From Abditibacteriaceae bacterium (lineage in GTDB: Bacteria > Armatimonadota > Abditibacteriia > Abditibacteriales > Abditibacteriaceae): a stretch of 64,000 nt of DNA. Below are positions 7,474 through 61,143 of the stretch, piece after piece. The stretch is from positions 1 through 64,000 of the forward strand of contig JANPJS010000143.1 of assembly GCA_031425655.1 (NCBI GenBank). The letters run 5' to 3'. A program made the translations under genes and the position numbers. The notes under the pieces were generated by a model. The model saw only the letters and a program-made list of their open reading frames with translations, searched no databases and had not been told where the DNA came from. Each line of letters opens with the position of its first letter. The stretch's first letter is position 1.

Positions 7474-10338
7474 TCATCCAAGAGCAGCGCGCTTCAAAGT
7501 GACTTTTGAAGCACGCCCCTTCTCAGCCGCCGCTTTTTTTGTCGTAGCGCGCAGCACAATTTTGCTCGCTTCGCACAGCCACAACACCGAACTGGCGACG
7601 GCTCCGCAGCGCAGCCAATCGCCCGCGCTCAGGCCGACGGTTGAAAAGGCGTTTTGCAGAAATGGCAGATAAATCACCGCGACATGAAGCGCCAGCGACA
7701 GGCCGACGGCGCCCCAAAGCCAGCGATTTTGAAAAAGTCCGCGAAAGGCGCTTTGCTCGTCCGAGCGTGCGTTAAACACGTTGAACATTTGAAACAGCAT
7801 CAGCGTGGTGAAAGCCATCGTCTGGGCGTAGCGCATAGTGCCTGAACCTTCGACCAAGCCGCCGGGCAGCGAAGCATCCAGCACCAACAGAGTGCCCGTT
7901 GCCATAATCGCACCGATAAAAACGATACCCGCCCACATCCGCCGCGTGATGACGCCTTCACTTTGCGGGCGCGGCGGGCGATTCATCAGGCCCACTTCCG
8001 CCGGATCAACGCCGAGGGCAAGGGCGGGCGCGCCGTCCGTCACCAGATTAATCCACAAAATGTGCGTTGCCAAAAGCGGCAACGCGACCGCGTGGCCTTC
8101 AGCGTGCAGGCCGATGGTTTTCGCCAGCAGAACTCCGAAAAACATCGTCATCACTTCGCCAATGTTGGACGACAGCAGAAAGCGCAAAAACTTGCGGATA
8201 TTAGCGAAGATAGCGCGCCCTTCCTCGACTGCCGCCACGATGGTGGCGAAGTTGTCGTCAGTCAGCACGACGTCGGCGGCTTCTTTGGAAACGTCCGTGC
8301 CGGTGATGCCCATCGCCACGCCGATGTCGGCGGTTTTGAGAGCCGGAGCGTCATTCACGCCGTCGCCGGTCATGGCCACAATCGCGCCGCCACTTTGCAG
8401 CGCCTTCACGATACGCAGCTTGTGTTCGGGGTTAACGCGCGCATAAACCGAAACTTCACGCACCGTTTGCACAAGTTCCGGCTCCGACATCTTTTCCAAC
8501 TCGGCGCCCGTGATAGCACGGCCATCGCTGGTGATGCCCAATTCTCCGGCGATGGCCGCAGCGGTTTCGGGATGATCGCCGGTAATCATAATCGGGCGGA
8601 TTCCCGCCTCGCGCGCCCGCGCTACGGCCTGTTTCGCTTCCTCGCGCGGCGGGTCAATCATGCCGACGAGTCCGAGAAAAACAAGCTCGTTTTCAACGCT
8701 TGCGTTGACGACTTGGCCCGGCAATGCGCCCTCTGGCAATTTGCGCTCGGCGACAGCCAGCGTGCGCAACGCTTGTCCTGCGAGAACTCTGTTGAGCCGC
8801 AAAATCTCCGCGCGCCGCTCCTCGGTTAAAGGTCTGGGATGCGAACCCACCATCTCGAAAGCGCAACGCGCCAGCAAAACACCGGGCGCGCCTTTGGTAA
8901 AAACGAGGAGGCGCCCCGGCATTTCGGTGTCGGTGTGAACCGTTGTCATCAGCTTGCGCTCGGACGAAAAGGGCACTTCCGCGACACGTTTCAAGCGCGC
9001 TTCGAGAACTGCGGTTTCGAGTCCCGCTTTACGCGCCGCGACGATCAGGGCGCCTTCGGTCGGGTCGCCCTGCACAGCCCAGAGGCCGTCCTGCTCTTGC
9101 AGCGCAGCATTATTGGCGCGGTCGGCCACGGTCAGAGCGCGCTGCAATTCTTCGCGCAACGCACCGTCGGGCGCCGTGCCGTCTTCACCCAGCACTTCGC
9201 CGCTGGGCGCGTAGCCAATGCCTTCCACATGGACGCGCCCGCTTGCCGTGACGACGGCGCGCACCGTCATCTCGTTTTTGGTCAGCGTGCCGGTTTTATC
9301 CGAAGCGATGACCGTCGCCGAACCGAGCGTTTCAACTGCTGCGAGATGGCGCACGATGGCGTTGCGCTTTGCCATGCGCTGCACGCCCAGCGACAACACC
9401 GTCGTCACCACAGCAGGCAAGCCTTCGGGCACGGCGGCGACTGCCAAAGCCACGCCTAAAATCAGAACATCGAAGAGCGCCGAAACCCCGCGCACCTTTT
9501 CAACGAGAATGATGGTGGCGATCATCACGACAGCGATAATGACGACGATAACGCCGAGCAGCTTGCCCATTCGGTCAAGCTCTTTTTGCAGCGGCGTTTT
9601 TTCAGTCGGAGCTTCGTGGAGCATTCCCGCAATGCGTCCCATTTCGGTTTGCATTCCGGTCGCCGTCACGACGGCTTGGCCGCGCCCATAAGTCGCAGAT
9701 GTGCCGCTGAAAATCATGTTGAGGCGATCGCCAAGCCCGGCGTCTCCGTCAAGTGGAGCGATGTCTTTCGTCACCGGCAAACTCTCGCCCGTCAGAGATG
9801 CTTCGGCCATTTGCAGCGAGGTGGAATGAATCAGGCGCGCATCGGCGGGCACGGTATCGCCTTCCTCGATGAGAATAACGTCGCCGCACACCAGTTCTGC
9901 AGCGGGAACGCTGTGCCGCTCGCCGTCGCGCAGCACATTCGCGTGCGCCGCCACCATCTGGCGCAGGGCCGCTACCGCCGCTTCGGCGTGCGACTCCTGA
10001 ACGTAACCCATGACCGCGTTGACCAGCACGACGGCTAAAATTGCCATCGCCTCGTAAGGCAGCGCCGATTCGCGCTCAATGGCCCACAGCACACCCGAAA
10101 TCACGGAAGCGATGAGCAGCAGAATCACCAGCACGTCCTGAAATTGCGCGAGAAATTTGCGCCACGCCGGAACCGGCTCATGGGCCGTCAACTCGTTGCG
10201 GCCATCGCGTTCGAGCCGCGTTTTTGCTTCCGTTTGGCTTAAACCGCGTTGTGCATCGGTGTTCTGTGCGGCGAGAATTTCTTCACCCGATTGTTGATAA
10301 GGTTGTGTAGGATTGTCCTGCATGGGAGTAAGGTTCAT
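7474..10338 (-). CDS. P-type IIA cation (Ca2+/Mn2+)-transporting ATPase
   Basis: Motifs TGES, VPEGL, DKTGTLT, KGA, TGD, GDGVNDAP, SNIGE and INLVTD. The start may be 10323. Confidence 0.93.
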   Translation of the reverse strand: MNLTPMQDNPTQPYQQSGEEILAAQNTDAQRGLSQTEAKTRLERDGRNELTAHEPVPAWRKFLAQFQDVLVILLLIASVISGVLWAIERESALPYEAMAILAVVLVNAVMGYVQESHAEAAVAALRQMVAAHANVLRDGERHSVPAAELVCGDVILIEEGDTVPADARLIHSTSLQMAEASLTGESLPVTKDIAPLDGDAGLGDRLNMIFSGTSATYGRGQAVVTATGMQTEMGRIAGMLHEAPTEKTPLQKELDRMGKLLGVIVVIIAVVMIATIILVEKVRGVSALFDVLILGVALAVAAVPEGLPAVVTTVLSLGVQRMAKRNAIVRHLAAVETLGSATVIASDKTGTLTKNEMTVRAVVTASGRVHVEGIGYAPSGEVLGEDGTAPDGALREELQRALTVADRANNAALQEQDGLWAVQGDPTEGALIVAARKAGLETAVLEARLKRVAEVPFSSERKLMTTVHTDTEMPGRLLVFTKGAPGVLLARCAFEMVGSHPRPLTEERRAEILRLNRVLAGQALRTLAVAERKLPEGALPGQVVNASVENELVFLGLVGMIDPPREEAKQAVARAREAGIRPIMITGDHPETAAAIAGELGITSDGRAITGAELEKMSEPELVQTVREVSVYARVNPEHKLRIVKALQSGGAIVAMTGDGVNDAPALKTADIGVAMGITGTDVSKEAADVVLTDDNFATIVAAVEEGRAIFANIRKFLRFLLSSNIGEVMTMFFGVLLAKTIGLHAEGHAVALPLLATHILWINLVTDGAPALALGVDPAEVGLMNRPPRPQSEGVITRRMWAGIVFIGAIMATGTLLVLDASLPGGLVEGSGTMRYAQTMAFTTLMLFQMFNVFNARSDEQSAFRGLFQNRWLWGAVGLSLALHVAVIYLPFLQNAFSTVGLSAGDWLRCGAVASSVLWLCEASKIVLRATTKKAAAEKGRASKVTLKRAALG

Positions 10339-10586: not shown

Positions 10587-11333
10587 TCAATCGTCGGGAA
10601 AAATGCTGGTGCGCGGCACGGCCTCTTCATCGTCGTCCGCACTGCTCTGGCGATGCATAATGGTAAAGAAAATCGCGCCCGCTCCCAAGCACGCCAGAGC
10701 GGCCAATAATAAGCAGATCGGGCCATAAATCATGTCGAGGAAGGCGCCCAATAAGCCTCCACAACCAAAAGAGAACAGCAGCGCGATCAGGAACTTGAGC
10801 TTCCACTTCACGATGCGACGATGACGCAGCCAGTGGCCAATCATCACGCCCAAGTCGGTCACGACGCCGCTGACGTGCGTGGTGCGAATCATTAGCCCGC
10901 AATAACTGCTGCTCATCGCGTTTTGCAAACCGCACGCTGCCGCCGCCAGCATAGGGCCGCCTGCTGACTTTCGGAGTAGCAGCAGAGTTGCAACCAAAAG
11001 CAGCGCGCCCTCAATCATCATCACCACGCCAAAGCGACGCGAGGGCACCAGTTTGGTCGCTCCAACGAAGATGCCGGCCATCATCGCGCCGAGCAAAAAG
11101 CCCAAAATGATAAGAACCGAACCGAGCGAATCTTCGACGTGACCTTCGGCGACGTTCAATCCCAGGCGCGATACTGCGCCCGACATATGGCTGACAGGCG
11201 TGTCGAAGAAGCCCAACATGACCGAGTTGACGTATCCAGCCGTGCCACTAAGAGCCATCATTCCGGGCAGGATATGCTTCCATTCCCGGTAAACCGTCGC
11301 TTTGTCGAGAGGTTGGGGGTAAGAATAAGGCAT
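10587..11333 (-). CDS. YoaK/DUF1275 family membrane protein
   Basis: Motifs AGYVN, VSHMSG, GLQNA and RTTHVSG..TDLG. Confidence 0.85.
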   Translation of the reverse strand: MPYSYPQPLDKATVYREWKHILPGMMALSGTAGYVNSVMLGFFDTPVSHMSGAVSRLGLNVAEGHVEDSLGSVLIILGFLLGAMMAGIFVGATKLVPSRRFGVVMMIEGALLLVATLLLLRKSAGGPMLAAAACGLQNAMSSSYCGLMIRTTHVSGVVTDLGVMIGHWLRHRRIVKWKLKFLIALLFSFGCGGLLGAFLDMIYGPICLLLAALACLGAGAIFFTIMHRQSSADDDEEAVPRTSIFPDD

Positions 11334-11859: not shown

Positions 11860-14760
11860 TTAAATTACCGGCGCCTCAGCGAGAAATTTGTCCAAAGTGT
11901 GGAGGAACTGATCAACATTAAGGGGTTTGGTCAGGTAATCTTTGGCTCCGGCAGCCAACAACCGTTCTATCTGCTTGGTCGTGGCATCGGCGCTGACGAT
12001 AACAACCGGAATATCTCTGGTCAGGGCCGATTGTTGCAAACGCGCCAACACTTCAGTGCCGTGAATATCGGGTAAATCGAGATCGAGAAGGATAAGATCA
12101 GGCTCATGCTGGCGCGCCAAGTCCAGCCCCACGCTGCCCTGTATGGCGGCCAGCAACGTGATTTCCGGGCGGCTTCGCAAGATAGCCTCTATAAGCCGCA
12201 AATTGGAAGGGTTGTCTTCAATACAGAGTATGGAATACGAGCTTTCGTTTTCTTTGATTGTCTCTACTTGGAGAGTGCCTTCCGGTAAATTCTTTAACTG
12301 CTCCACTGGTGAAACGGCTTGCGGGAATGCGACAGTGAATGTCGTGCCCTCGCCCAACGTGCTTTCGACTTTTAGAGTTCCGCCCATCGCCGTCACCAGC
12401 CGTTGCGACAAAACCAGGCCCAATCCGGTGCCTTCGACGTTAGAGGTCGAGGCGCTCAACCGCTCGAACGGCGTGAAAAGCTTTGGCAAATCTTCGGGCG
12501 TGATGCCCGGCCCGGTGTCACGAATCGCAATGGAGATCCATTCGTCCGGCTGTTGTTCGCAAGAGACTTCGACCTCCCCACTCTCACGATTGTATTTAAT
12601 GGCATTGGACAGCAGATTTATCAGCACCTGCTTGAATCGCTGCAGGTCAGCCAGAACGTAGAGGCGTTCCGTCTTCGAGGTGTTTTCTGAGAAACGGATA
12701 TTGCGCCCGGCTGCCAGTGGCCGCACCAGAGCGCAGACTTCAGGCACAACATCAGCCAGAGCAATCGGTTCTATAGAAAGATCAACGTGTCCGGCTTCAA
12801 CGCGAGCGATGTCTAATATCTCGTTGATAAGGTCGAGAAGGTGCCGTCCGCCTTTGAGGATGAAACCCACGCTTTCGTGCGCAAGCGGGTCAAGGTTTTC
12901 CTTATCTAAGATTTGACCAAAACCAAGAATCGCATTGAGCGGAGTGCGAAGTTCGTGACTCATGCGCGAAAGAAATTCGCTTTTGGCCAGATTGGCCGCA
13001 TCCGCCTGCGCTTTGGCTTCATGCAGCGCGGCCTCAATGTTCTTGCGTTCTGTAATGTCCCGTGATACTTTGGCGAAGCCACGCAGATTGCCCGATTCAT
13101 CGCGCAGCGCTGTAAGGACAAGGGTGGCCCAAAAGCGCGAGCCGTCCTGCCGCACGCGCCAGCCTTCATCCTCCAGGTAGCCTTCGGCTTCTGCGGTGCG
13201 TAGCATTTGCATCGGCTTGCCGGCTTGTTGGTCTTCTTCGGTGTAAAAGCACGAAAAGTGTTGGCCGATGATGTCTTCGGCGCGATAGCCTTTCATGCGC
13301 TCGGCCCCGGCGTTCCACGTCATGATATGGCCGGTGGGAGACAGCATCAAGATCGCGTAGTCATGCGCGTTTTCCACCAGCAACCGAAATCGCTCTTCGC
13401 TCTGCGTCAGCGTGGCCATGATTTGCTGTTGCTCGGCCTCTTCTTCTCGCAACGCAACATTCGCCCGTTCCAATTCTGACGTGCGTTCTGCAACGCGCAG
13501 TTCCAAGTTTTCGTTGGCCTTGCGCAAGGCTGCTTCAGCCTCTTTGAGTTCTGTAATGTCCGTGCAGGTGCCAACCCATTCGCGGATGCTGGCGTCGCTT
13601 TCCAGAATTGGCACGCCGCGCACTGCGAAAAGACGGTATTCGCCGTCTGCAGCTCGAATGCGGTATTCAGTCTCATAGAGGCTTTTTGTCGCCACGCAGT
13701 TGACCCATATCTTTTCGGCCCGCTCGCGATCATCGGGATGCAAGGCTTGCCCCCAGCCCCAGCCCTGCACTTCTTCCACGCTCTGGCCGGTATAGTTCCG
13801 CCAGGCCGGCATATCTTCTACGGCCCCGTCAGGCGGTGTAGTCCACACGATCTGCGAGGTCGCCACCGCGAGTGAGCGATAGCGCTCCTCACCCTGGCGC
13901 AGCGCCGTCTCCGCCTGCTTGCGCTCGGTAATCTGCTGCAAAAGCTCCCCGTTAAGCGCCACGGCCTTTTCTCTGGACTCTGTGGCGTCTTCCATCATGT
14001 TGAGGGCAGCAATGCGGGCCGCTTCTGAATCCCCGGTGCGTTGTGCCACCTTCTGATCCAGAGTGGCATTCAACTCCGCCAGTGCATTGACCTTGCTTTC
14101 CAATTGCACTCTGAATTCCATAAGAGCGACCTGATCGCGCTGCATGGCCCGCAGGGCCAGTAGCCAACCGACGAAAAAGATTGCAATGCCACAAAACTCC
14201 AATACCAATTGCTGGAAATTTCGCTGGCGGTCTAATTGATGTTCGCGCTGGCTGATGCTCTGGAGTTGTTCGAGAAGTTGCTCCATTCCGTGAACATGGA
14301 TGCGCACCTGCCTGCGATACTCCTCACTCGCCAGAATGCCCTGCGCCTCGTTCAGGCGATTCAAGCCAGCGAGCTTGAAAACCCGATGTTCCATCAGCGC
14401 CAGCTTTTGACCAGATTCATCGGTTTGCGTGATGCTTGCCATGGCCTCAGGTGCGAGCTTTTTAAGTTCCTTTATCATGGAGAGATATTTTTTCTCAAAT
14501 ACCAAGTAACGCTTCTTCCAGTTGGGATCTCCTGTTTCGGCAGCCATGCGCGCCGACATGGTGAACGCCTCGTCAAAATGAATGACACGGCTTCCCAGCT
14601 TTTCCAGCCGCATGAACTTAGCCTGCATGGTGCTGGAGCCCTGAAAACTTTGGTAGTCACTGAAGGCAAACCACATTAAAGCGATGGCCGTGATAATTAC
14701 AGCGCCGGCCAGAAACCGCGAGGGGAGATGCCTTCGAGAAATTGACTTAATTGTCGCCAT
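11860..14760 (-). CDS. Hybrid sensor histidine kinase (TM-sensor-TM, 2x PAS, HisKA, HATPase, REC)
   Basis: SHELRTPL H-box, NLLSNAIKY, DTGPGI, GTGLGL, and a C-terminal receiver (IEDN, LLDLDLP, TKP). ATG 14760 follows AAGGAAG. Confidence 0.93.
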   Translation of the reverse strand: MATIKSISRRHLPSRFLAGAVIITAIALMWFAFSDYQSFQGSSTMQAKFMRLEKLGSRVIHFDEAFTMSARMAAETGDPNWKKRYLVFEKKYLSMIKELKKLAPEAMASITQTDESGQKLALMEHRVFKLAGLNRLNEAQGILASEEYRRQVRIHVHGMEQLLEQLQSISQREHQLDRQRNFQQLVLEFCGIAIFFVGWLLALRAMQRDQVALMEFRVQLESKVNALAELNATLDQKVAQRTGDSEAARIAALNMMEDATESREKAVALNGELLQQITERKQAETALRQGEERYRSLAVATSQIVWTTPPDGAVEDMPAWRNYTGQSVEEVQGWGWGQALHPDDRERAEKIWVNCVATKSLYETEYRIRAADGEYRLFAVRGVPILESDASIREWVGTCTDITELKEAEAALRKANENLELRVAERTSELERANVALREEEAEQQQIMATLTQSEERFRLLVENAHDYAILMLSPTGHIMTWNAGAERMKGYRAEDIIGQHFSCFYTEEDQQAGKPMQMLRTAEAEGYLEDEGWRVRQDGSRFWATLVLTALRDESGNLRGFAKVSRDITERKNIEAALHEAKAQADAANLAKSEFLSRMSHELRTPLNAILGFGQILDKENLDPLAHESVGFILKGGRHLLDLINEILDIARVEAGHVDLSIEPIALADVVPEVCALVRPLAAGRNIRFSENTSKTERLYVLADLQRFKQVLINLLSNAIKYNRESGEVEVSCEQQPDEWISIAIRDTGPGITPEDLPKLFTPFERLSASTSNVEGTGLGLVLSQRLVTAMGGTLKVESTLGEGTTFTVAFPQAVSPVEQLKNLPEGTLQVETIKENESSYSILCIEDNPSNLRLIEAILRSRPEITLLAAIQGSVGLDLARQHEPDLILLDLDLPDIHGTEVLARLQQSALTRDIPVVIVSADATTKQIERLLAAGAKDYLTKPLNVDQFLHTLDKFLAEAPVI

Positions 14761-16291
14761 TGTCGCCACTTCCTTTATCGGCACCATCGTATTCAGGAAG
14801 ACCTGATGCCGCGAGAAAAGCCAGCTTATAGGGTGGCGGCGTTCCTAATTGCTCGGACAAGCGGTTAATCTGTTGTTTAAGCTCGACCATGCGTAGCTCG
14901 CGCCCGACAGCGAGACGGTTAAAGCGAGCCAGTTCGTCGTTGGAATGTGTCGTTTCCTCCACCTGTCGTTGCAGATTGTCCTCAGCTTGCTTGCGTTCGC
15001 TGATGTCGCGCAGATAGCCGGTGAAGATGGTGCACTCGCCAAGATTAACTGGAGAAATAGATAATTCGGTGGGGAATTCTGAGCCGTCGGCGCGCATCGC
15101 CGTGACTTCGATTCTGTGGTTTATTAAGGGGCCTTTGCCCGTCTCCAGAAAGTGCGCCAGACCGCGCTGGTGCTGTTCGCGCAAGGCCGGAGGAATGATA
15201 AGATCGGCCAGCAGTTGACCGATGACTTCGTTGCGCGTATAGCCGAAGATTTTTTCGGCAGCCGGATTAAATTCGATGACGCACCCTGTGTCATCCATCG
15301 AGATGATGCCATCCAACGCAGTCTCAAAAATGGCGGCCTTGCGTGCCTCGCTTTCCCGCAGTGATTTCTCGGCCCGCTTGCGCTCGCTGATGTCGCGCTT
15401 GATTGAAGATGCCCCAATAATACGGCCCTCCGCATCCTTCAGCGGTGAAATCGAAAGCGAAATATCGAGATGGGAGCCATCTTTTCGCACCCGCACCGTC
15501 TCGTAGTGTTCGACCGGCTCGCCATGCCTGATTTTTTCCAGCAGTTGCTGCATTTCGTCGAGCAGATTCGCAGGCGCTAAAAAAGAAACCGGTCGGCCAA
15601 TCGCTTCCTCGGCTGTATAGCCATATAGCTTTTGCGCGCCCGCGTTCCAAGTTGTGATAATGCCATCCAAAGTCTTGCTGATGATCGCGTCTTCGGAGGA
15701 CTGCACAATCGCTGACAAGAGGGCAGAATCCGCTTCAGCCGATTTGCGCTGGCTGATGTCACGGATGTTGCATTGAATGACCTGCTTGTCTCCACTCACA
15801 TAAACGTTGCTTACAAACTCAACGGAAGCTTTTTGACCGTTTTTTGTTTCGAGCGGCAAATCGTCATAACGGACATATTCTTTTTCTTGTAACGTGCGAA
15901 AAGCGTCCTGATTGGCCGCGATGTCGCGGAAAGTGCCGATTTCCCAGAGCTGCTTACCCATGAAGTCGTCCGGCGCGTAACCCAACAACTGGCACAGATA
16001 GGGATTCACATCTTCGATTTTTCCGGTTTCCGCATCCAGAATCAGAATTCCGTCTTTGGCGGATTCAAAAAGCCGCTGGTAACGCACCTCGGAAACTCTT
16101 AAGTTTTCTGCATCCTGACGGGCCGACTCTGTGATGCCGGCTAACTCACGCTGGGTGTTCACCAACTCGTTGTTAATGCGGCTGATTTCATTCAACTGTG
16201 CGCCGTCGTGTCCCGCCTGCACCTGTGCCTCGGCGACTTCGCGCTCCAAAGCGGCGCGAAGTTCCAAGATAGTTTGTTCGTTGGCATTCAT
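14747..16291 (-). CDS. Triple-PAS protein with coiled-coil termini and no catalytic output domain
   Basis: Three PAS/PAC repeats each end in RDIS.RK. N-terminal EISRINNELVNTQREL and C-terminal RFNRLAVGRELRMVELK...PPPY. Confidence 0.88.
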   Translation of the reverse strand: MNANEQTILELRAALEREVAEAQVQAGHDGAQLNEISRINNELVNTQRELAGITESARQDAENLRVSEVRYQRLFESAKDGILILDAETGKIEDVNPYLCQLLGYAPDDFMGKQLWEIGTFRDIAANQDAFRTLQEKEYVRYDDLPLETKNGQKASVEFVSNVYVSGDKQVIQCNIRDISQRKSAEADSALLSAIVQSSEDAIISKTLDGIITTWNAGAQKLYGYTAEEAIGRPVSFLAPANLLDEMQQLLEKIRHGEPVEHYETVRVRKDGSHLDISLSISPLKDAEGRIIGASSIKRDISERKRAEKSLRESEARKAAIFETALDGIISMDDTGCVIEFNPAAEKIFGYTRNEVIGQLLADLIIPPALREQHQRGLAHFLETGKGPLINHRIEVTAMRADGSEFPTELSISPVNLGECTIFTGYLRDISERKQAEDNLQRQVEETTHSNDELARFNRLAVGRELRMVELKQQINRLSEQLGTPPPYKLAFLAASGLPEYDGADKGSGDNGDN

Positions 16292-16317
16292 GTCGGACGG
16301 GTCTCCCTTGACGGGCG

Positions 16318-17469
16318 TTACGGCTTTGACTGCGTCAACATCTCGCTTGGATTCTCATTCAAAGAATTCGCGTGCGTGACTTGGTTGCGGCCACTCTCTT
16401 TGGAAGCATAAAGCGCGCGATCCGCCGCGCCGATTAGCTCCGTTTCGGAGTTGATTAGCGAGGATAATGTGGCTGCGCCAAAACTGGCAGTTACCGCGCG
16501 CTCTGGCCAGGGCGCCGATTCAATGACCACGCGCAGACGCTCGGCCATAATAACTGCACCTTCAGCGTCGGTATTGGGCAACACGAGCGTGAATTCTTCG
16601 CCGCCGTAGCGCGCCACGAAATCAGTCGTCCGCGCTTGTTCCCGAAGCAGGCGCGCTACAGTTTTTAAAACTTCGTCGCCTCCCAAATGGCCGAATGTGT
16701 CGTTATATTGCTTGAACTTATCCACATCTAACAAAACCAGCGAAAGCGGTGTTTTGTAGCGCAGGCTACGGATAATTTCTTCTGTCAGCTTTTCCCCGAA
16801 GGCGCGGCGGTTTTTCACTCCGGTCAAGCCGTCCATTGTCGCCAGCGCGTCCAATCGAACATTGGCTTCTTCTAAGGCAACTTGCTTGGCTTCTAAAGCG
16901 GTTCGCGCTTCTTCTAAAGCCGCGTTGGTCTGACTCAAAACAGCGTTCTTTTTCGCCAGTTCACGCTGCGCCGTCATCACACCATTGTTGGCGCGGCTGA
17001 GTTCGGCGAGTAACTCGTTGTCGCGTTCGCTTCGAGCGTGCTCGGACAACGAAGCCTGTTTCACTGCTGCGCGCAAAGAATTCACGGTCTCATTGTTAAT
17101 CCGCATCAATTCTTCTACCAAGCGTGTAGCGTCTGAGTTCGCCGCTTCCCCTACGCTGTTCCCCACGATCAAGACACCGTCATTGGTGGCGCCCCCGGTC
17201 AAACTTAAACCGGTGAGTTTTCCCTTAATCGTCACCTGAATTTGCCAGCCGAAAGCGTAGCCGGAGTCACACAGCGTTTCCATGAACTCTTGGGCTAATC
17301 CCGCTTCGGGAGCGAGGTTTTCCCCTTGACAAATGCCAATCGCAGCAATGAATGGCTGCCCCACCTTTAATTGCGAAGACAACCCCAATCCGTCATGGAT
17401 GACTCTGGTAATCACGCCTTGCGAATTACATAAAACCACGATGCCGCTCGCCGAAGAATGAGGTTTCAT
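16318..17469 (-). CDS. Diguanylate cyclase (PAS-like, coiled coil, GGDEF)
   Basis: Motifs DGLTGVKNRR, DVDKFKQYNDTFGHLGGD and RYGGEEF, with an RTTD I-site. Confidence 0.93.
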   Translation of the reverse strand: MKPHSSASGIVVLCNSQGVITRVIHDGLGLSSQLKVGQPFIAAIGICQGENLAPEAGLAQEFMETLCDSGYAFGWQIQVTIKGKLTGLSLTGGATNDGVLIVGNSVGEAANSDATRLVEELMRINNETVNSLRAAVKQASLSEHARSERDNELLAELSRANNGVMTAQRELAKKNAVLSQTNAALEEARTALEAKQVALEEANVRLDALATMDGLTGVKNRRAFGEKLTEEIIRSLRYKTPLSLVLLDVDKFKQYNDTFGHLGGDEVLKTVARLLREQARTTDFVARYGGEEFTLVLPNTDAEGAVIMAERLRVVIESAPWPERAVTASFGAATLSSLINSETELIGAADRALYASKESGRNQVTHANSLNENPSEMLTQSKP

Positions 17470-18542
17470 GAGGAATTGCTTTCTGGGACAAGACGGTTCG
17501 CCAGATCAACGGCGCTGGCGGCGTCGCTGGCGCATCCATCGGCGCCCAACTGCCGCCACATTTCCGGCACAACCCGGAAGGGATAGCCACCGACCAAAAT
17601 CTTGACCTCGCCGCAACTTGCATCTGCGCGCACCAGATCAATCAATTCTTTCACCGATTTCAAGTGAGGAATAATAGTGGCTGAAATCGCCAATACGTCG
17701 GCTTTCTGCTCGCGCACCGTTTCCAAAATGCTGGACACCGGCGTGTTGGCACCCAGATAATGGGTATCCCAGCCATTGAGTTCAAACAGGTCGGACACCA
17801 TTCGCACGCCGATTTCATGGAGATCGCCCGCGATGCAGGTCGCTATCATCGTGCGCCCCGTCCGCTCGCCGCTAAAAAGATATGGATAAAGCTGCGACAT
17901 AACGAGTTGCGTGGCGGCAGTGCAGTAATGTTCCTGAGCCACGCTGATCTCATTCATTTGCCACAACCGCCCGATTTCATGTTGGCAGGGTTGAAAGACT
18001 TGAAGATAAACGTCTTGCACCGAAGCGCCACTTTCGACGGCGCCCAGCACCAGGCGACTGGCATTTTGGCGTTCCCCGGCCAGCAATGCCGCTAAATAGT
18101 CGCGCGCCAGTGGAGAAAGCGGCTGGTCTTCAGCAATGAAACTCGGCAGAGTTGCCGGCACAGTCGCCAGCCCGGTCACACCCGCCGCGACGTATTCCAC
18201 CGCGATGTCGGATGCGGGCGCGTCGAGCGATTGCCGGAGCGCATCGGACATGCATTGAAGATTGACTACCAAATCTTCAAGCGGAATATTGCGCCCGGCC
18301 AACATAACTCTGGCCCACGCCAAATAGTCGGCGAAAAGCCTCGGTTCCGCCACAGAGAGCGACTCCGCCAGATAATCCAAGTGATAATCGGCATCGCGCA
18401 GGCATTTGAGGCGGCCCCGTTCGCCGTAGCGCACGGCGAGTTCGGGGTGTCGCGCGTATTGCTGCGTTACCATCGCTTCTGCGATTTGGATACGGTGCAA
18501 ACCAATATCTCGGCTTGCGTCCTGATATATTTGCGTTGCCAT
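17466..18542 (-). CDS. Phycobiliprotein-like globin plus CarH-type cobalamin-binding protein (photocobilin-like)
   Basis: N-terminal HPEL..RYGE....KCLRDADYHL resembles the phycobiliprotein CLRD bilin site. It is followed by W-x9-EH (WQMNEISVAQEH) and D-x-H-x-x-G (GDLHEIG) in a B12 Rossmann domain. Confidence 0.8.
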   Translation of the reverse strand: MATQIYQDASRDIGLHRIQIAEAMVTQQYARHPELAVRYGERGRLKCLRDADYHLDYLAESLSVAEPRLFADYLAWARVMLAGRNIPLEDLVVNLQCMSDALRQSLDAPASDIAVEYVAAGVTGLATVPATLPSFIAEDQPLSPLARDYLAALLAGERQNASRLVLGAVESGASVQDVYLQVFQPCQHEIGRLWQMNEISVAQEHYCTAATQLVMSQLYPYLFSGERTGRTMIATCIAGDLHEIGVRMVSDLFELNGWDTHYLGANTPVSSILETVREQKADVLAISATIIPHLKSVKELIDLVRADASCGEVKILVGGYPFRVVPEMWRQLGADGCASDAASAVDLANRLVPESNSS

Positions 18543-18551
18543 AACGTCTCC

Positions 18552-18953
18552 TTAGCTACAAATGAATTCGAATAAACGGATTTCTGCGCTACGCGGCACG
18601 AGTTTCAGTCCCTTGGGAATGCCTTTGTGCGATTCGTGATATTCGTGGCTGCGATGCCAGACCCGATAGCTTTCTTCATCGGCCCAATAAGTCACCAGCC
18701 AAAGTTCGTCCGGGTTATCGAATGGCACCAGAACCTCCATCTTCACAAAGCCCGGCGCATCATCCACCAGATGCGGGCGATGGCGAAAAGCAGCCTTGAC
18801 CTCTTCCATCATCCCGTTGGCGACGACGAACTTGCTGAGCGCGACAAATTCCGCCGCGCCATGCGGGGAGATTGTTTCCTGTATCGCAGCAGGATTTGAA
18901 GCACTCTCAGCGAACGGACACAGGCTCTGTGCCTTTTTCTGGTTCTGTGTCAT
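18552..18953 (-). CDS. Antibiotic biosynthesis monooxygenase family protein, IsdG/HmoA-like (putative heme binding or degradation)
   Basis: F..R..LVD..PGF, TYW..EE.Y..W..S......H pattern typical of IsdG-like ABM proteins. Confidence 0.8.
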   Translation of the reverse strand: MTQNQKKAQSLCPFAESASNPAAIQETISPHGAAEFVALSKFVVANGMMEEVKAAFRHRPHLVDDAPGFVKMEVLVPFDNPDELWLVTYWADEESYRVWHRSHEYHESHKGIPKGLKLVPRSAEIRLFEFICS

Positions 18954-19057
18954 GCTTCTCCTTTGGAATCATGGCGATGCAGCCACGCTTTTTTCGAGAT
19001 GGACGGTAAGCAGCATCCGGCTCACTTTCTGTGCCATCACGCTGTGAAGCACGCCGG

Positions 19058-20107
19058 TTAGGTGTCGGCAATTACTTCGTTCACCGGGCGGCGCGGCGTG
19101 GCCGGTGCCGGCTCGGCTGTCGGCTCAGAGTAGCCCAAACGGAATATCAGTTGCGGGAAGTTGCGGATGCCGAGTGCATGGCGCAGTTGCACCCAGGCTT
19201 CGTCAACCTGAATCGGTTGGCTAAAGAAACTGGCCGAAACGCCTTCGGCGCGGGCGCGGAGCAAAACGCGGCTTAAAGCTTGTCCCGCCGCAAGCCAGGC
19301 TTCCGGGCCTTCGTTGTCGGTGCAAAGAACCACCAAAAGCGGCGCACTGCGGGCCAGTTTTCCTTCTTTGTCGGCTTGCGCTTCGCCGCTCTCACCGACG
19401 CGCAATGCAAACGGTGCGACGTGCGAGATTAAATCACTGAGGCCCAGAGCGCGGGCTGGAATCCCGTCGTGGCGACGGCTGTGAGCCGGCGCAATCCAGT
19501 CGGCTTTATCGCGCCGCACCGCCGGGTCATTACTTTGAACCAGAGCGCCGAACTCGATCAGGTTGATAATCGCATCGCGGTCAGTCTGGCTTTGTGCGAA
19601 GTGCAGCGATGCCTCTTCCTGCACCGCTTCTTGCTGTAAGGTTTGCAGCAATTCGGCAGCCAATTCACGCGCTTGGAACTGTTGCCGGTTGGTGTGGCGC
19701 TCGGCAATGTAACGAAACAGCAACTCATCGTCCGGCAGAGGTTGATGCGGTCGAGAAAGGTGAACGCGCGCCAGTAAATTGGGCCGCGCCGGGTCGGGCA
19801 GAATCGAGACGATGTTGGCGTAACCGAAGGCGTAAATCGTCAGGCGCAGATGCTGCAGCGCCGCGCCGCAGCTCATAATCAACTCGCGCCCACTGGCATC
19901 AAGGGCGGGCATTTCACGGCTGCGGTCAGCCCACAGTTCGATCTCACTGCCGTTGATTTCCCACAGCCACGGCTGCGTGTTGTGGCTCGAAGGCGCCAAA
20001 ACGGCATAGTTCAGCACGAAACGCAGCTTTTCCTCCGGCTCGCCGGAGTGCGGAAAATCCGCCGCATTGACTGTGCTTGCGTTCGGTTCTACGATAGGTT
20101 TCAACAT
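19058..20107 (-). CDS. Acg-family nitroreductase (FMN-binding)
   Basis: Motifs APSSHNTQPW, MSCGAAL, RHTNR, WLAAGQAL and PQLIFRLGY. Confidence 0.9.
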   Translation of the reverse strand: MLKPIVEPNASTVNAADFPHSGEPEEKLRFVLNYAVLAPSSHNTQPWLWEINGSEIELWADRSREMPALDASGRELIMSCGAALQHLRLTIYAFGYANIVSILPDPARPNLLARVHLSRPHQPLPDDELLFRYIAERHTNRQQFQARELAAELLQTLQQEAVQEEASLHFAQSQTDRDAIINLIEFGALVQSNDPAVRRDKADWIAPAHSRRHDGIPARALGLSDLISHVAPFALRVGESGEAQADKEGKLARSAPLLVVLCTDNEGPEAWLAAGQALSRVLLRARAEGVSASFFSQPIQVDEAWVQLRHALGIRNFPQLIFRLGYSEPTAEPAPATPRRPVNEVIADT

Positions 20108-20622
20108 GGCACGAAACTCCCTTGAGCCTTTTCCAGGTTCAGACCAGCAGGCGCGGCTTCGGCCACTGCCGGCGCCGCATGAACGGTGAGAACAGGGCAA
20201 CGCGACTGACGCACGATGGCTTCAGCTACGGAGCCAAAAACAAGGTGTCGCCAACCGCTCAGGCCGTGCGTGGCAATCACCAGCAGATCGAAATTTCCAT
20301 CGGTGGCGGCGCAGGCGATTTCTTTGTCGGCGTAGCCCATTTTGACTTCGCAGCGCACCTTGATGGCAGGTGGCACGCGCTCGGCGGCGACTTCGAGCAG
20401 CCGGCGCGTCGCGTCGTCCAATCGCTGGGCGTCGGACGGCCTATCAGCTACGACTAAGATTCCCAGACCAAGATCGGGCGGCGACGCGGGCAGAAACGGC
20501 ACGATGTGCAGCAGGCACAGCTCAGCCTCGAAATGCGCCGCCAGTTCAATCGCGTGATCCAACGCGGCATAAGACGGTTCGCTGAAATCCGTCGGGCACA
20601 AAATCTTCTTCAATGGTAACAT
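20101..20622 (-). CDS. Universal stress protein (single domain)
   Basis: Motifs ILCPTDFS, ATHGLSG and FGSVAE...CPVLTV. Confidence 0.92.
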   Translation of the reverse strand: MLPLKKILCPTDFSEPSYAALDHAIELAAHFEAELCLLHIVPFLPASPPDLGLGILVVADRPSDAQRLDDATRRLLEVAAERVPPAIKVRCEVKMGYADKEIACAATDGNFDLLVIATHGLSGWRHLVFGSVAEAIVRQSRCPVLTVHAAPAVAEAAPAGLNLEKAQGSFVPC

Positions 20623-20692
20623 GAGGGTTCACCTGTTGAGCGGTTTGAATCTTCCGTTCACCAAGCATTATCACAAGTCCAAGAGCGGCGAA

Positions 20693-20800
20693 CATCACCT
20701 AAATGGGTGATTGTCGGAAAAACAAGGTTTTCACGTTTTCGGATGTAATGGCCTGACCGCGTTTGACAATCACCCATGACAATCACCCATTTAGGTGATG
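20693..20800. mobile_element. Short MITE-like element in a divergent usp promoter region
   Basis: Perfect 23-bp inverted repeats CATCACCTAAATGGGTGATTGTC at 20693-20715 and 20778-20800, plus a tandem GACAATCACCCAT. Confidence 0.6.
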
Positions 20801-20857
20801 CCGGAGGCTGGCCGCGCCGCGATAATGAAAGGTAATGTCGCCGTCGAGGAACCACTC

Positions 20858-21799
20858 ATGCCGAAATTAAAAACAATTCTGTGTCCCACCGATTGGAGCG
20901 AGCCGTCGCGCGTCGCTTTGCGGGCCGCCGTGAAGATGGCGCGCCACGAGGGAGCCGAACTGCTATTGCTCCATGTCCTGCCGCCTCTTGGGTCGGTGCG
21001 CGGCCTCGCTTCGGTCGTTCCATTGGAGCAGGTCATTCAAGACGAGGCGCGCCAAAAACTTGATGCGCTGATTAAAGAGTGCGTGCCGCCGGGCGTGCGA
21101 GTGCAGCCCCTGATTCGCATCGGCGAAGAGGCTGAGGAAATCCACAGCGCCGCTTTGCAAGCCGATGTCGTGGTGATGAGCACGCATGGCCGCTCCGGTT
21201 TGGCGCGCTGGGCTTTCGGCTCGGTCGCCGAAACTGTGCTGCGCGAATCAACGTGCCCGATATTTGTCGTCGGCCCGGCGGGTGCAACCGGTGCTAAAAG
21301 CGAGGCGGGGCAGAATGGACGAAGTTCCTGCTTCGATTTTCCCTACAAGCAAGTGCTGTGGCCGACCGACTGGAGCGAATCCTCCGAGCAGGCGCTCGAT
21401 GAAGCGATTGCCATTGCCGCGCATCACGGCGCGCAGTTGCTGTTGTTGCACGTCACCGAGCCGCTGGATTTAGAACCAAAGGAGTGGTGGCGTGAGCAGC
21501 ACGCCGAGGCTCAGAAGCATTTCCACGCATTGTGCGAGCGCAAGCCGGGAGCGCAGGGCGCGCGCCACCTGATTTGTCACGGTGTCCCGGCGACGGAAAT
21601 CCTTCGCGCTGCCGTCGCGGAAGGCGCCGATTTAATCGTCATGAGTAGTCATGGGCGCACGGGTTGGCAGCGTTGGGATCTCGGCCCGGTGGCGCAAAAA
21701 GTGCTGCGTGGGGTGCCCTGCCCGGTTTTTCTTGTGCCTCCTCACGCCGTCATGTCGTCGCTCGCGGCATCGCACGAGGAAACCGTTGTCACAATCTGA
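20858..21799 (+). CDS. Tandem-domain universal stress protein
   Basis: Two Usp domains (PTDWS...STHGRSG and PTDWS...SSHGRTG). RBS GAGGA. Confidence 0.92.
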   Translation: MPKLKTILCPTDWSEPSRVALRAAVKMARHEGAELLLLHVLPPLGSVRGLASVVPLEQVIQDEARQKLDALIKECVPPGVRVQPLIRIGEEAEEIHSAALQADVVVMSTHGRSGLARWAFGSVAETVLRESTCPIFVVGPAGATGAKSEAGQNGRSSCFDFPYKQVLWPTDWSESSEQALDEAIAIAAHHGAQLLLLHVTEPLDLEPKEWWREQHAEAQKHFHALCERKPGAQGARHLICHGVPATEILRAAVAEGADLIVMSSHGRTGWQRWDLGPVAQKVLRGVPCPVFLVPPHAVMSSLAASHEETVVTI

Positions 21800-21830
21800 A
21801 GTCGGCCCATTTCACGCGAGGAGTATGGTT

Positions 21831-22877
21831 ATGAAAGACAAACTTATAAAACTGCTGGTTGCCTACGACGGCTCGACAGGTGCGGACGCCGCGTTGGACG
21901 ATCTTCGGCACGCCGGATTGCCCCATGAAGCGCAGGTTGAAGTTCTGGTTATCTCGGTTGCCGATGTGCTGGTGCCGCCGTCCGGTGGGTTGGCCTCTGC
22001 TCCGATTCCTGAATCCGCCGATTATGCGTATTCGCCGCAGGTTGCAGGTGTAGCGGCACTTGCCCGGCACCATCGTGACAGCGCAATGCAGGCTGTGAAG
22101 GCAATGCAAGAGGTAGCCGAAAAAGGACGCCGGCGATTGAGCGCGCTATTTCCCAATTGGGAAGTGCGCGGCGAATCCTGCGCCGATTCTCCGGCGTGGG
22201 GCGTGCTGAAAAAAGCCGACGAATGGCAGCCCAATTTGATTGTCGTGGGCGCCAACAGCCATTCCATGCCGGAAAAGCTGATATTCGGCAGCATCGCCCA
22301 AAAGGTTGTCACCAAAGCGAAGGGCAGCGTGCGCGTTGGGCGCGCTGGTGACAAAGAAGCGGGCGCTCCACTGCGCCTCATCATGGGCATGGACGGTTCG
22401 CCGGACGCGCAGGCAGCCCTCGATGCCCTGTGCGCGCGTTCCTTCCCGCTGGGCAGTGAAGTGCGTGTAGTGACGGTTCTCGACTCGCGCATGGCCAGGA
22501 GCATCGCCACGATGCTGCCGGCTTTGTCCCGCTGGGTCGGCGAAGGCGGTCAGAACGGAGAAGCCAATAGCGAAGATGAGTTCGCCTGGGTTTCCAACAT
22601 GGTCGAAGAGGCTGTCGAACAATTGCGCGCTTCGGGGTTGGCTGCGACCGGAATAGTGCGCGAAGGCGACTCAAAACACGTTCTTCTCGATAAGGCGGAA
22701 CAATGGAAGGCCGATTGCATTTTTATCGGCGCCAAAGGCTTGGTCGGTTCGAGCGGATTGCAGAATCTCGAACGCTTTTTCTTAGGCACGACGGCAACCG
22801 TCGTCGCGTCGCGCGCTGCTTGCTCGGTCGAGGTCATTCGCACGCTATTTCTCGCGCCGCAAGCCGACAACTCGTGA
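21831..22877 (+). CDS. Tandem-domain universal stress protein
   Basis: VAYDGS...FGSIA and MDGSPDA...LGTTA...CSVEVIR. RBS GAGGAG. Confidence 0.9.
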   Translation: MKDKLIKLLVAYDGSTGADAALDDLRHAGLPHEAQVEVLVISVADVLVPPSGGLASAPIPESADYAYSPQVAGVAALARHHRDSAMQAVKAMQEVAEKGRRRLSALFPNWEVRGESCADSPAWGVLKKADEWQPNLIVVGANSHSMPEKLIFGSIAQKVVTKAKGSVRVGRAGDKEAGAPLRLIMGMDGSPDAQAALDALCARSFPLGSEVRVVTVLDSRMARSIATMLPALSRWVGEGGQNGEANSEDEFAWVSNMVEEAVEQLRASGLAATGIVREGDSKHVLLDKAEQWKADCIFIGAKGLVGSSGLQNLERFFLGTTATVVASRAACSVEVIRTLFLAPQADNS

Positions 22878-22891
22878 AAAGTGGGACAGCA

Positions 22892-23500
22892 ATGAAGCGT
22901 CTGGAGCAATTGTTCGAGAATGCAATGTGGAACAGCCGGCGCATGGTGCTGTTGGCGGTGGTGTCGAGTCTGCTGCTGGCGTTCGGCGCCTTCTGCATGG
23001 CCACCATAGATGTAATCCAAGTATTGGGGCAAGTCTTCTCTTACCTTAACCTCAATTTGGTTGGCGACGCACGTCTTACCATGCGCGAGGAAATCATTAC
23101 GGTCATCGTCAAGGCCATAGACACCTATCTTATTGCCTCGATTCTGCTGATTTTCGGACTGGGTTTCTATGAATTGTTTATCAAGCGCATCGAAAAAGCG
23201 CACGAAACCGATGCCGCGCCGAGCCTGCTGTCGGTGCACTCCTTCGACGATCTCAAAGACCGCATGGCGAAGCTGATTTTGCTGGTGCTCATCACCGAAT
23301 ACTTTCAGTATGCAATTAAGCTGAAGTTCACTAAAGCGCTGGATTTGCTGTATCTGGCGCTGGGCATTTTGCTCATCGGCGGCGCGCTCTATCTCAGCAG
23401 CTACACCAAAATCAAAGACGACACGACGAAGGGCGACACCAACGATGATAGCCCTGATTCGCGCGAGGTCGCCGCGCAGAAATTAAAAGGAAGTGCTTGA
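22892..23500 (+). CDS. YqhA/UPF0114 family membrane protein
   Basis: Motifs WNSR, D.YLIA..LLIFG.G.YELFI and SFDDLK. Confidence 0.85.
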   Translation: MKRLEQLFENAMWNSRRMVLLAVVSSLLLAFGAFCMATIDVIQVLGQVFSYLNLNLVGDARLTMREEIITVIVKAIDTYLIASILLIFGLGFYELFIKRIEKAHETDAAPSLLSVHSFDDLKDRMAKLILLVLITEYFQYAIKLKFTKALDLLYLALGILLIGGALYLSSYTKIKDDTTKGDTNDDSPDSREVAAQKLKGSA

Positions 23501-23501
23501 A

Positions 23502-24461
23502 ATGTTACCTTTGCAACGAATTTTGTGTCCGACTGACTTCAGCGACTTTTCGTATGGAGCGATAGAAAAAGGCGCCGAGTTGGCCAAGCATTTTGGAGCC
23601 GAACTTTGCGTGCTGCACGTCACGCCGACGCTACAACACACGCCCGGATTGACGCCCTTCCCGGAATTCGCCGGCGTTGACCCTTCGCAATGGGAAACCG
23701 CCACACAAGAGGGCGCAGAGCGTGAACTGGGCGAACTCGTCGAGCGACATCACTTGAATGGCGTCCGAGTGCGCGCTCTGGTCAGGCGCGGCGATCCTGC
23801 CGATGAAATCGTGAGTGCCGCCGATGAAGAAAAGTGTGACCTCATCATTCTTCCCACGCACGGCTTGACCGGTTGGCGCCACAATATCTTCGGTTCGGTC
23901 GCCGAAAAAGTCCTGCGTGTGGCCCATTGCCCGGTTCTGGTCAGGCGCGTCCAGGCGGCGGAAGCAGTGGGAGCCGTAACTCCGCCGCGCAAGATTTTAT
24001 GCTCGACCGATTTCAGCGAGCCGTCCTTTGCGGCGTTGCAAGTCGCGGGCGAATGGGCAACCCACTTCGGCGCCGAGCTTTGCCTGATTCATGTCGTAGA
24101 GCCGCAGGGCAGTCCCGGTTTGTTTTTGTGGAAAGAAGACATCGAAGCAGCGATGCGAATCGAGGCGGTGCAGCAGCTTGACACCATTCTGCGCGAACGC
24201 CTGCCGCAACTCGCTTCGGCGCGCTCGATTGTGAGAATGGGCAGCGCCGCCGATGAAATCGCCGCTGCCGTCGCCGAGGAAAACGCCGATCTTCTCATCA
24301 TCGCCACGCACGGCGCGAGCGGTTGGCGGGGTGCTCTATCCGGCACCCCAATTGAGCATTTGCTGTTCGGCTCCGTGACGACCAATGCGCTGCGCCTGAC
24401 ATCGTGCCCCATTCTCACGGTGCGGCTGCCACCCGAATCCGGCGTTTTCGAGGTAGCATAA
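23502..24461 (+). CDS. Tandem-domain universal stress protein
   Basis: ILCPTDFS...THGLTGW...FGSVAE and ILCSTDFS...FGSVT...CPILTV. Similar to the Usp at 20101-20622. Confidence 0.92.
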   Translation: MLPLQRILCPTDFSDFSYGAIEKGAELAKHFGAELCVLHVTPTLQHTPGLTPFPEFAGVDPSQWETATQEGAERELGELVERHHLNGVRVRALVRRGDPADEIVSAADEEKCDLIILPTHGLTGWRHNIFGSVAEKVLRVAHCPVLVRRVQAAEAVGAVTPPRKILCSTDFSEPSFAALQVAGEWATHFGAELCLIHVVEPQGSPGLFLWKEDIEAAMRIEAVQQLDTILRERLPQLASARSIVRMGSAADEIAAAVAEENADLLIIATHGASGWRGALSGTPIEHLLFGSVTTNALRLTSCPILTVRLPPESGVFEVA

Positions 24462-60837: not shown

Positions 60838-61143
60838 TCACCATCCCTCGTCGCCCGGAAACGCATTCGCATATTTCACGCTGCTGCGCGGCGCGGCCAT
60901 CATTTCGGCGACGGCATCGCGCCATTGGGCATAATGTGCGGTTTCTTTGTGCGCGGCGTTGGCCTCAGCGCTGCGATAAACCTCGACTAAAACGAAGCGT
61001 GTCGGGTCGTCGAGTTGCTGCACAACATCGAAGCGGGCAACGCCCGGTTCCTGCACGCTGTTTCGTGAATTATCCAATGTCGCCGCGAGAAAATCTGCGA
61101 CGCACTCCGGCTTGACCTGAACGTGAACGTGGACAATGAACAT
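60838..61143 (-). CDS. ABM-family putative quinol monooxygenase / LsrG-like protein
   Basis: MFIVHV...EPGVARFDV...FVLVEVY...[19 protein letters not shown]. Confidence 0.88.

Follow-up and report, generated by a model that had tools for sequence, protein, structure and literature searches.

Whether five tightly packed genes form a light-sensing unit, where such a unit would obtain its pigment, and to what it would pass its signal are the questions raised by a locus in a 64,000-nucleotide stretch of DNA from an Abditibacteriaceae bacterium (GenBank assembly GCA_031425655.1, contig JANPJS010000143.1, positions 1 to 64,000, here called the window). The genes lie on the minus strand in the order ABM protein, globin-B12 sensor, GGDEF protein, three-PAS protein and hybrid kinase (Table 1), with intergenic gaps of +9, -4, +26 and -41 nt. 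An earlier description made from the letters alone (the sequence-only reading) gave the same order and packing, which the open reading frames (ORFs), gaps and Pfam domains bear out. The 358-residue protein is a globin-first photoglobin/photocobilin. The conserved unit consists of three genes and not five, namely a Ser-type ABM, the sensor, and an effector led by a shared input module, and this three-gene module is real and mobile. The sensor family is a known one; the dedicated ABM subfamily and the docking module were not found in the literature searched. With moderate confidence we propose that the locus encodes an adenosylcobalamin (AdoCbl) light switch with a bilin as its red-light antenna, which docks on the input of a cyclase, the bilin being made by the Ser-type ABM.

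The sensor is a globin-first photoglobin

An AlphaFold2 model of the sensor was built from 70 of 120 listed homologues (predicted local distance difference test score 93.4, predicted template modelling score 0.89). Residues 1-126 of the model superimpose on allophycocyanin (8OR7) with a Z-score of 15.8 and a root-mean-square deviation of 2.2 over 125 residues, and align with its residues 32-159 as a phycocyanin-like 3-over-3 globin. The alignment begins at allophycocyanin residue 32, and the N-terminal X/Y helices are therefore absent. The Pfam family PF00502 (Phycobilisome) matches residues 20-117 barely over its cut-off (23.1 against 22.2 bits). Fold comparison and Pfam match together confirm the suggestion that the N-terminal domain has a phycobiliprotein or globin fold. 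Cys47 matches, without a gap, the Cys of the ACLRD motif in allophycocyanin beta, and it is kept in 63 of the 70 aligned homologues, with Asp50 in 69 and Trp76 in all 70. The residues that mark a photoglobin are all present, these being an Asp in helix 3 (D50), a Leu in helix 4 (L81) and a distal Cys, Ser or Thr (C47), as is the fusion to the domain pair B12-binding_2 plus B12-binding within a signalling operon. In a sequence alignment read with the numbering of the published paper (offset 5), Asp50 and Trp76 correspond to the bilin residues Asp270 and Trp296 of the photocobilin SasPcob, which has Thr at the position of Cys47.

The cobalamin half is equally well defined. The signature of AdoCbl photoreceptors has been described as GxxW, EH, GxxH and GxxxP (PMC11796333), and the sensor carries all four elements: GRLW at 191-194, EH at 204-205, GDLH at 239-242 and GANTP at 264-268. 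The W-x9-EH and DxHxxG motifs named in the sequence-only reading are genuine (W194-x9-E204H205 and G-D240-L-H242). Residues 140-355 of the model best match the photocobilins 8J2Y and 8J2W (Z 26.4 and 26.2). There is no MerR-type DNA-binding domain, a globin standing in its place, and the protein scores 59.7 bits against NF052513, which has a cut-off of 400.

It is very improbable that the protein is not a light sensor at all, being instead a cobalamin-status or redox sensor, or a corrinoid protein of the methyltransferase type (MtbC1). The JGI names of homologues (MtbC1), the weak NCBIfam matches to MtgC/MtbC, a structural similarity to 3EZX (Z 23) and the adjoining stress cluster of a nitroreductase and universal stress proteins could all be read in that way. 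However, every corrinoid-protein cut-off is missed by a wide margin (65-81 bits against 215-370), the W/EH adenosyl-pocket signature is present in this sensor as in all of 108 sensors compared, and the downstream neighbours that were scanned are kinases and cyclases. A search of this genome, which is 97.15% complete, found an adenosyltransferase of the PduO type as well as a separate CarH-like gene, and no match to CobS or CobA/BtuR. This set would fit B12 salvage together with B12 light sensing.

Two published studies already define the family to which the sensor belongs. Photoglobins were defined in silico by Schneider et al. (PMC8717448), who modelled the globin-first protein WP_077839650.1 with C46/D49/L80, predicted a covalent bilin, and listed GGDEF, PAS, kinase, heme oxygenase and ABM monooxygenase genes as neighbours. 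The sensor has the same globin-first order, the same Cys/Asp/Leu set (47/50/81) and the same fusion to the domain pair B12-binding_2 plus B12-binding. The novelty implied by the sequence-only reading was accordingly overstated, the globin-first Cys form and its operons having been published in 2021-22; what does stand is its description of a stand-alone, photocobilin-like sensor, given the phycobiliprotein-type globin and the B12 photoreceptor signature. Photocobilins were then shown experimentally to bind AdoCbl and non-covalent biliverdin with optical coupling between the two, and stand-alone members were shown in vitro to act in trans on a cyclase (PMC10979010). SasPcob (8J2W/8J2X) and AbDPcob (8J2Y) have the same three domains as the sensor, the same W/EH and E/DxH motifs and the same bilin Asp and Trp; they differ in having a C-terminal globin, no Cys, and a biliverdin that is non-covalent and flipped. 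The same paper notes groups with either domain order, and the globin-first kind is uncharacterised there, as in the rest of the literature searched.

Two other systems are worth comparing. BBAG-2 globins and phycobiliproteins (PMC10151467) include a bilin-type clade that is linked to heme oxygenase and B12-binding proteins and has CxRD at the bilin Cys, whereas the sensor lacks the X/Y helices, its family motif is CxQD, and its genome has no bilin reductase match. In H-NOX/NosP systems (PMC8846402) the logic is similar, a stand-alone tetrapyrrole sensor acting in trans to control the cyclase or kinase encoded with it, although the fold and the stimulus are different and the module described below has no Pfam HNOBA match. 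An open-access literature search, to which the main supplements of PMC10979010 and PMC8717448 were external, found no Ser-type IsdG with photoglobins, no covalent photocobilin and no docking module. The family has many members: of 7999 candidates that were scored, 3653 match at E 0.001, B12-only matches included.

A shared input module follows the sensor

For a survey of the neighbourhood, 108 loci with a full globin-B12 gene were used, comprising 27 of 37 genome loci, loci from two related genomes and 79 of 80 metagenome loci; set aside were ten matches that were partial or confined to the B12 part, three duplicates and a metagenome locus matched only in part. The gene after the sensor opens with the same module in 90 of the 101 evaluable loci, using a profile trained on the same 108-locus set; it is lacking in 11 (three of them borderline), and a further 7 are cut off. 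The predicted structure is a PAS fold (residues 5-110, Z 11.3 to 5HWT) followed by a single long helix with two NNE repeats, in which all 66 of 66 sequences keep N161 and R169. In a scan of 59 of the 65 non-redundant effectors (five truncated and one near-duplicate left out), no Pfam family covers the module in any of the proteins, and a PDB sequence search of the module matched only the HisKA tail.

The module was also used as the starting point for a reverse test, by searching 602 genomes in two phyla. Of the 18 module loci found, 17 adjoin a B12 protein with GxxW-x9-EH, and all nine full-length matches lie directly behind a globin-B12 gene, with the caveats that two of the nine are in the training alignment, both centre genomes are known positives, and two loci share a neighbourhood. 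Natural fusions link all three parts of the cassette (ABM, sensor and module), and in L100, L210 and L211 the sensor and the helix form one polypeptide. We infer that the NNE helix of the effector is the predicted docking site for the sensor. The Ser-type ABM subfamily and the PAS-NNE docking module are not described in those main-text parts of PMC8717448 that were covered.

What follows the module is variable. Of the 59 effectors scanned, 50 have kinase outputs, eight have GGDEF and one has none. The co-occurrence of ABM, globin-B12 and GGDEF genes that had been put forward for survey holds for the first two, with GGDEF as a minority output, and the proposed five-gene wiring to cyclic di-GMP (c-di-GMP) and a hybrid kinase is not conserved, the membrane kinase being local. 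Here the GGDEF gene does encode a cyclase domain, predicted from its motifs to be active (GG(D/E)EF, DxDxFKxxND..GH..GD and an RxxD I-site); its N-terminal PAS and coiled-coil module had been overlooked.

The module profile matches 670 clusters at E<=1e-30, a number that rises to 1400 at 1e-10. Among Atlas feature matches, HNOBA clusters score best (0.91, 169 shared features), which is a lead only. PF07701 (HNOBA) has no Pfam match in the module, the PAS fold is generic, and no HNOBA structure is among the top fold matches listed, which need not speak against that family. Globin-less B12 proteins with the light signature are found in L246/L251, L247, L248 and L258, flanked by one or two genes with PAS-helix parts.

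The ABM protein is a candidate source of the bilin

By sequence the ABM has the ferredoxin-like fold of IsdG, MhuD and HmoB (PF03992), its best PDB sequence matches being TT1380, MhuD, HmoB and IsdI/G, and it shares with them the Trp, the proximal His and an Arg at the position of MhuD Arg26. Ser40, Trp99 and His109 are invariant in all 72 aligned homologues and take the positions of IsdG Asn7, of the ruffling Trp67 and of the proximal His77. The suspicion that the catalytic Asn of IsdG/MhuD is replaced by Ser was therefore correct. The 120 best homologues form a tight subfamily. The characterised IsdG, MhuD and HmoB enzymes serve heme-iron use and have Asn, whereas the ABM has an invariant Ser and adjoins photoreceptors.

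That this ABM truly belongs with the sensor is borne out from both directions. It is found in 56 of the 108 sensor loci, mostly <=50 nt upstream, and four more have a divergent ABM (60 in total); 34 have none and 14 have insufficient upstream DNA. In ABM-led searches that covered 853 genomes, all eight strong matches lie ahead of a sensor (five of them new, the other three, this locus among them, already known), and the 29 weaker matches, ABMs of the Asn or Phe type, have no sensor within 1.5 kb. Three divergent ABMs adjoining sensors also carry Ser. A search of 251 genomes of the phylum of G062 gave nothing at 1e-15, which shows little, since the divergent ABM of G062 itself (43 bits) was missed. 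PMC8717448 names the ABM a single time, as an oxygenase with a possible part in sensing or breaking down chemicals, and no role in bilin supply is described in the parts covered.

The case for bilin supply is mainly one of context. Searches of this genome for PF01126, HemS, a bilin reductase and a phytochrome PHY domain gave no match, in agreement with the idea that no canonical heme oxygenase accompanies the ABM. PF01126 is found in one of 13 genomes with ABM and sensor, against 12 of 26 sensor genomes without ABM. In L029 and L152 the slot of the ABM is occupied by a fusion of canonical heme oxygenase and photoglobin, ahead of the B12 gene (L029:6582-9987 and L152:170-2142; the B12 protein stands alone in both, and L029 adds a helix-bearing kinase). 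For the photocobilins studied in PMC10979010, its peer-review file leaves the native source of bilin open and, in the part covered, the one oxygenase of the genome that it mentions is of the mycobilin type. It is worth adding that a single substitution, R26S, makes MhuD yield biliverdin (10.1101/731950), and that an IsdG-like enzyme of B. japonicum is reported to give biliverdin (PMC6449446), so that the ABM may still work like an IsdG enzyme.

It is unlikely, in our estimate, that the Ser-type ABM is no heme oxygenase at all and acts as a heme or bilin chaperone, an attachment helper, or a heme-based O2 or redox co-sensor, with the sensor and its partner unchanged. Such a role would fit the loss of the catalytic Asn in 72 of 72 members, the scores below the NCBIfam HmuQ/IsdG heme-oxygenase cut-offs, and the nanomolar affinity of MhuD for biliverdin (10.1101/731950). 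Against it, the proximal His and the ruffling Trp are invariant, L029 and L152 have a canonical heme oxygenase in its place, and a chaperone would require a source of bilin, of which none was found in this genome. The ABM has an N-terminal Cys12-Pro13, a CP motif that recurs in 25 of 72 homologue rows and which we take to be of the heme-regulatory type. In L212:4742-5704 a Ser-type ABM is fused to a PAS-like region and an NNE helix, upstream of a Cys-type sensor; this fusion and the CP motif would fit a chaperone or co-sensor role. The L212 fusion ends in a Cys-rich tail (CxxC...HxxCxxC), and the same fusion may be represented by an Atlas cluster with 75 members of ~330 aa (ABM 95%, PAS_4 20%).

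Points that weigh against the proposal

A number of observations count against a bilin-carrying sensor supplied by the ABM and wired through the module. Sampling is one, as the metagenome set took the 80 most similar loci out of 498, a choice that over-represents the ABM clade. For the ABM itself, published descriptions hold that no characterised IsdG enzyme works without the catalytic Asn that Ser40 replaces (PMC5557675, PMC6018153), and the protein is for this reason not filed as an IsdG member; the L212 fusion fits a sensing role equally well. The exclusion between ABM and heme oxygenase is weak, because 14 of the 26 ABM-less sensor genomes (completeness mostly not given) also have no PF01126 match and nine of the 12 with PF01126 are Paenibacillus; G013 carries both, and strict exclusion was not upheld. 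Co-evolution of ABM and Cys47 was likewise rejected: the raw counts, in which Cys47 goes with the ABM, are significant (40 of 58 against 4 of 27 dereplicated rows, Fisher p 4.5e-6), whereas seven phylogenetically independent pairs on a quick tree show no association (p 1), and Cys is absent from the sensor in 16 of 56 ABM loci. The cross-dimer His137 of SasPcob is replaced by Ser271. In the globin, position 49 is Gln in 62 of the 70 homologues and Arg, as in phycobiliproteins, in 7, so that the family motif is CxQD and not CxRD; the CLRD bilin motif stressed in the sequence-only reading is thus partly chance in its exact letters, and Cys47 at the bilin-linking position stands. Biliverdin occupancy of AbPcob was only ~20% (PMC10979010). 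Finally, weak and helix-only module matches also flank globin-less B12 proteins, which indicates that the module tracks the B12 half and that bilin is unnecessary for the wiring.

The last of these points, together with the low occupancy of AbPcob, would suit a B12-only green-light sensor, with a structural or vestigial globin that has no bilin in the cell and an ABM that is a passenger. Many Ser/Thr-type sensors do come from genomes that have no ABM and no heme oxygenase, and the bilin-pocket residues are degraded in the close relatives L074 and L104. This explanation is nevertheless improbable, in view of the near-complete retention of Cys47, Asp50 and Trp76 and the near-confinement of the ABM subfamily to sensor loci. 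The two degraded relatives are, moreover, the ones without ABM, but being sisters they represent a single event.

Proposed mechanism

In the proposed mechanism, cobalamin would be imported and then adenosylated by the PduO-type enzyme. The sensor very probably binds AdoCbl, and light-driven Co-C cleavage would alter its oligomeric state, by analogy with SasPcob. A bilin is likely to be held by Asp50 and Trp76, and it may be covalently linked to Cys47, a step that we put forward tentatively. With similar reservation, the ABM could cleave heme and supply the bilin, its product most plausibly being biliverdin rather than mycobilin or staphylobilin. The signal would probably reach the cyclase in trans by way of the NNE helix, and likewise a second effector with the same helix. 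It is doubtful that the membrane hybrid kinase is reached, and if it is, this would be by way of the PAS protein, whose role as an adaptor is a guess. The fullest version of the proposal, in which an Asn-to-Ser subfamily of the IsdG fold makes a Cys47-linked bilin (biliverdin or an unusual one) that sits beside coenzyme B12, and the sensor connects to exchangeable kinases and cyclases via a PAS-NNE module common to hundreds of protein clusters, must be regarded as rather doubtful as a whole.

The published work on photocobilins left two questions, the source of the bilin in the host and the targets of stand-alone photocobilins (PMC10979010), and the module names a candidate for each. If a Cys47-linked, ABM-made bilin were true, this would be the first IsdG-type enzyme in the synthesis of a photoreceptor chromophore and the first covalent photocobilin. 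If the ABM makes the pigment, the chemistry of the IsdG fold gains a role beyond iron scavenging, and an enzyme of ~100 residues could furnish bilin for optogenetic tools. A docking role for the helix would give about 670 protein clusters an input. Should neither ABM supply nor docking hold, the locus is an unremarkable representative of a family already in print. The candidate genes are short (133, 358 and 383 codons), and co-expression in E. coli with a c-di-GMP readout is feasible.

The fourth and fifth genes and the spread of the cassette

The membrane hybrid kinase and most of the PAS protein are local additions. Only the first ~180 codons of the three-PAS protein lie within the conserved cassette. 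It had been called a PAS-only protein, and it does indeed have no catalytic domain; its N-terminus, however, is a copy of the module helix of the GGDEF protein. The closest comparison is L001, which is 83% identical in DNA to window positions 15744-18963, the similarity ending at 15744. Its fourth gene encodes a single soluble kinase of 1157 aa with the NNE helix at its start, and that of L069 encodes a helix-led kinase of 319 aa; this clade therefore has two helix-bearing effectors behind one sensor. In the present locus the second such effector has no kinase and has a GRELRMVELK end, and is followed by the membrane kinase, which has two predicted transmembrane segments, an ALNMMED helix, two PAS domains, HisKA, HATPase and REC. 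Elsewhere, GREL and ALNMMED motifs occur within 1.5 kb of each other in 7 of 28 GREL-bearing ORFs, and L206 has the same two-gene arrangement. The two helices (ELxRFNxxxVGRELRMxELK at 14816-14986 and ALNxxED at ~13990-14010, minus strand) have no Pfam match here, and occur in neighbouring or identical PAS/kinase proteins in L206, L208, L223, L224, L237, L238 and L240; they are possibly a separate helix-helix coupling pair.

The cassette is patchily distributed, a full-length sensor being found in 3 of 61 related genomes and a strong ABM in 2 of 301 genomes of the phylum. The closest homologues are labelled Abditibacteriaceae or Armatimonadota by their sources. In L001:7000-17074 the cassette lies in a stretch of 53-56% GC within a contig of 61-72% GC labelled Chloroflexia, which implies either horizontal transfer or a chimeric assembly.

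Features of the locus and neighbouring genes

Table 1. Positions of genes, domains and key residues in the window
Feature	Position	Strand	Length or residues	Basis or detail
ABM protein	18552-18953	-	133 aa	Pfam ABM (PF03992)
ABM Ser40	18834-18836	-		alignment to IsdG/MhuD
ABM Trp99	18657-18659	-		alignment to IsdG/MhuD
ABM His109	18627-18629	-		alignment to IsdG/MhuD
Globin-B12 sensor	17466-18542	-	358 aa	Pfam PF00502 + PF02607 + PF02310
Photoglobin domain (phycobiliprotein-type globin)	18165-18542	-	aa 1-126	PF00502, structural model
Sensor Cys47	18402-18404	-		alignment to allophycocyanin beta bilin Cys
CarH-type cobalamin-binding half (four-helix cap + Rossmann fold)	17466-18125	-		PF02607 + PF02310
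GGDEF protein	16318-17469	-	383 aa	Pfam PF00990
Cyclase input module	16915-17457	-		PAS fold (aa ~5-110) + long helix, ELMRINNE / ELSRANN..QRELAKKN repeats
Diguanylate cyclase domain	16318-16842	-		PF00990; GGEEF aa 289, metal/GTP motif aa 248, RxxD I-site aa 280
Three-PAS protein	14747-16291	-	514 aa	Pfam, three PAS
Helix copy (predicted docking type) of three-PAS protein			aa ~1-62	35.7 bits to module helix
GRELRMVELK C-terminal helix of three-PAS protein	14816-14986	-		
Hybrid kinase	11860-14787	-	975 aa	Pfam PAS-PAS-HisKA-HATPase-REC

A scan for promoters and terminators in the locus stayed at chance level (7 against 5.0 and 15 against 13.1 expected). The stress cluster upstream of the cassette (19058-24461) contains a nitroreductase and several universal stress proteins, and downstream there are a P-type cation ATPase (7474-10338) and a DUF1275 gene (10587-11333); none of these flanking genes is conserved with the cassette. 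The nitroreductase was considered as an electron donor and member of the unit, and was excluded because it had no tblastn match in the 37 loci tested.

Other ABM genes were also noted. A second B12-ABM pair lies at G000:C250:16086-17388 (L068:8087-9389), where a CarH/LitR-like MerR-B12 regulator is followed by an unrelated small ABM, the pair being divergent from a short-chain dehydrogenase-like gene. It was rejected as a paralogous system, the B12 protein being a CarH-like regulator and the ABM unmatched by the subfamily profile. A third ABM-domain match of the genome lies on the same contig as the cassette, at window positions 60916-61143 on the minus strand. Among the 29 weak ABM matches, 11 have Phe at the position of the IsdG Asn with Trp and His kept, and form an ABM group of the same phylum (L164, L168-L172, L176, L179-L181 and L186).

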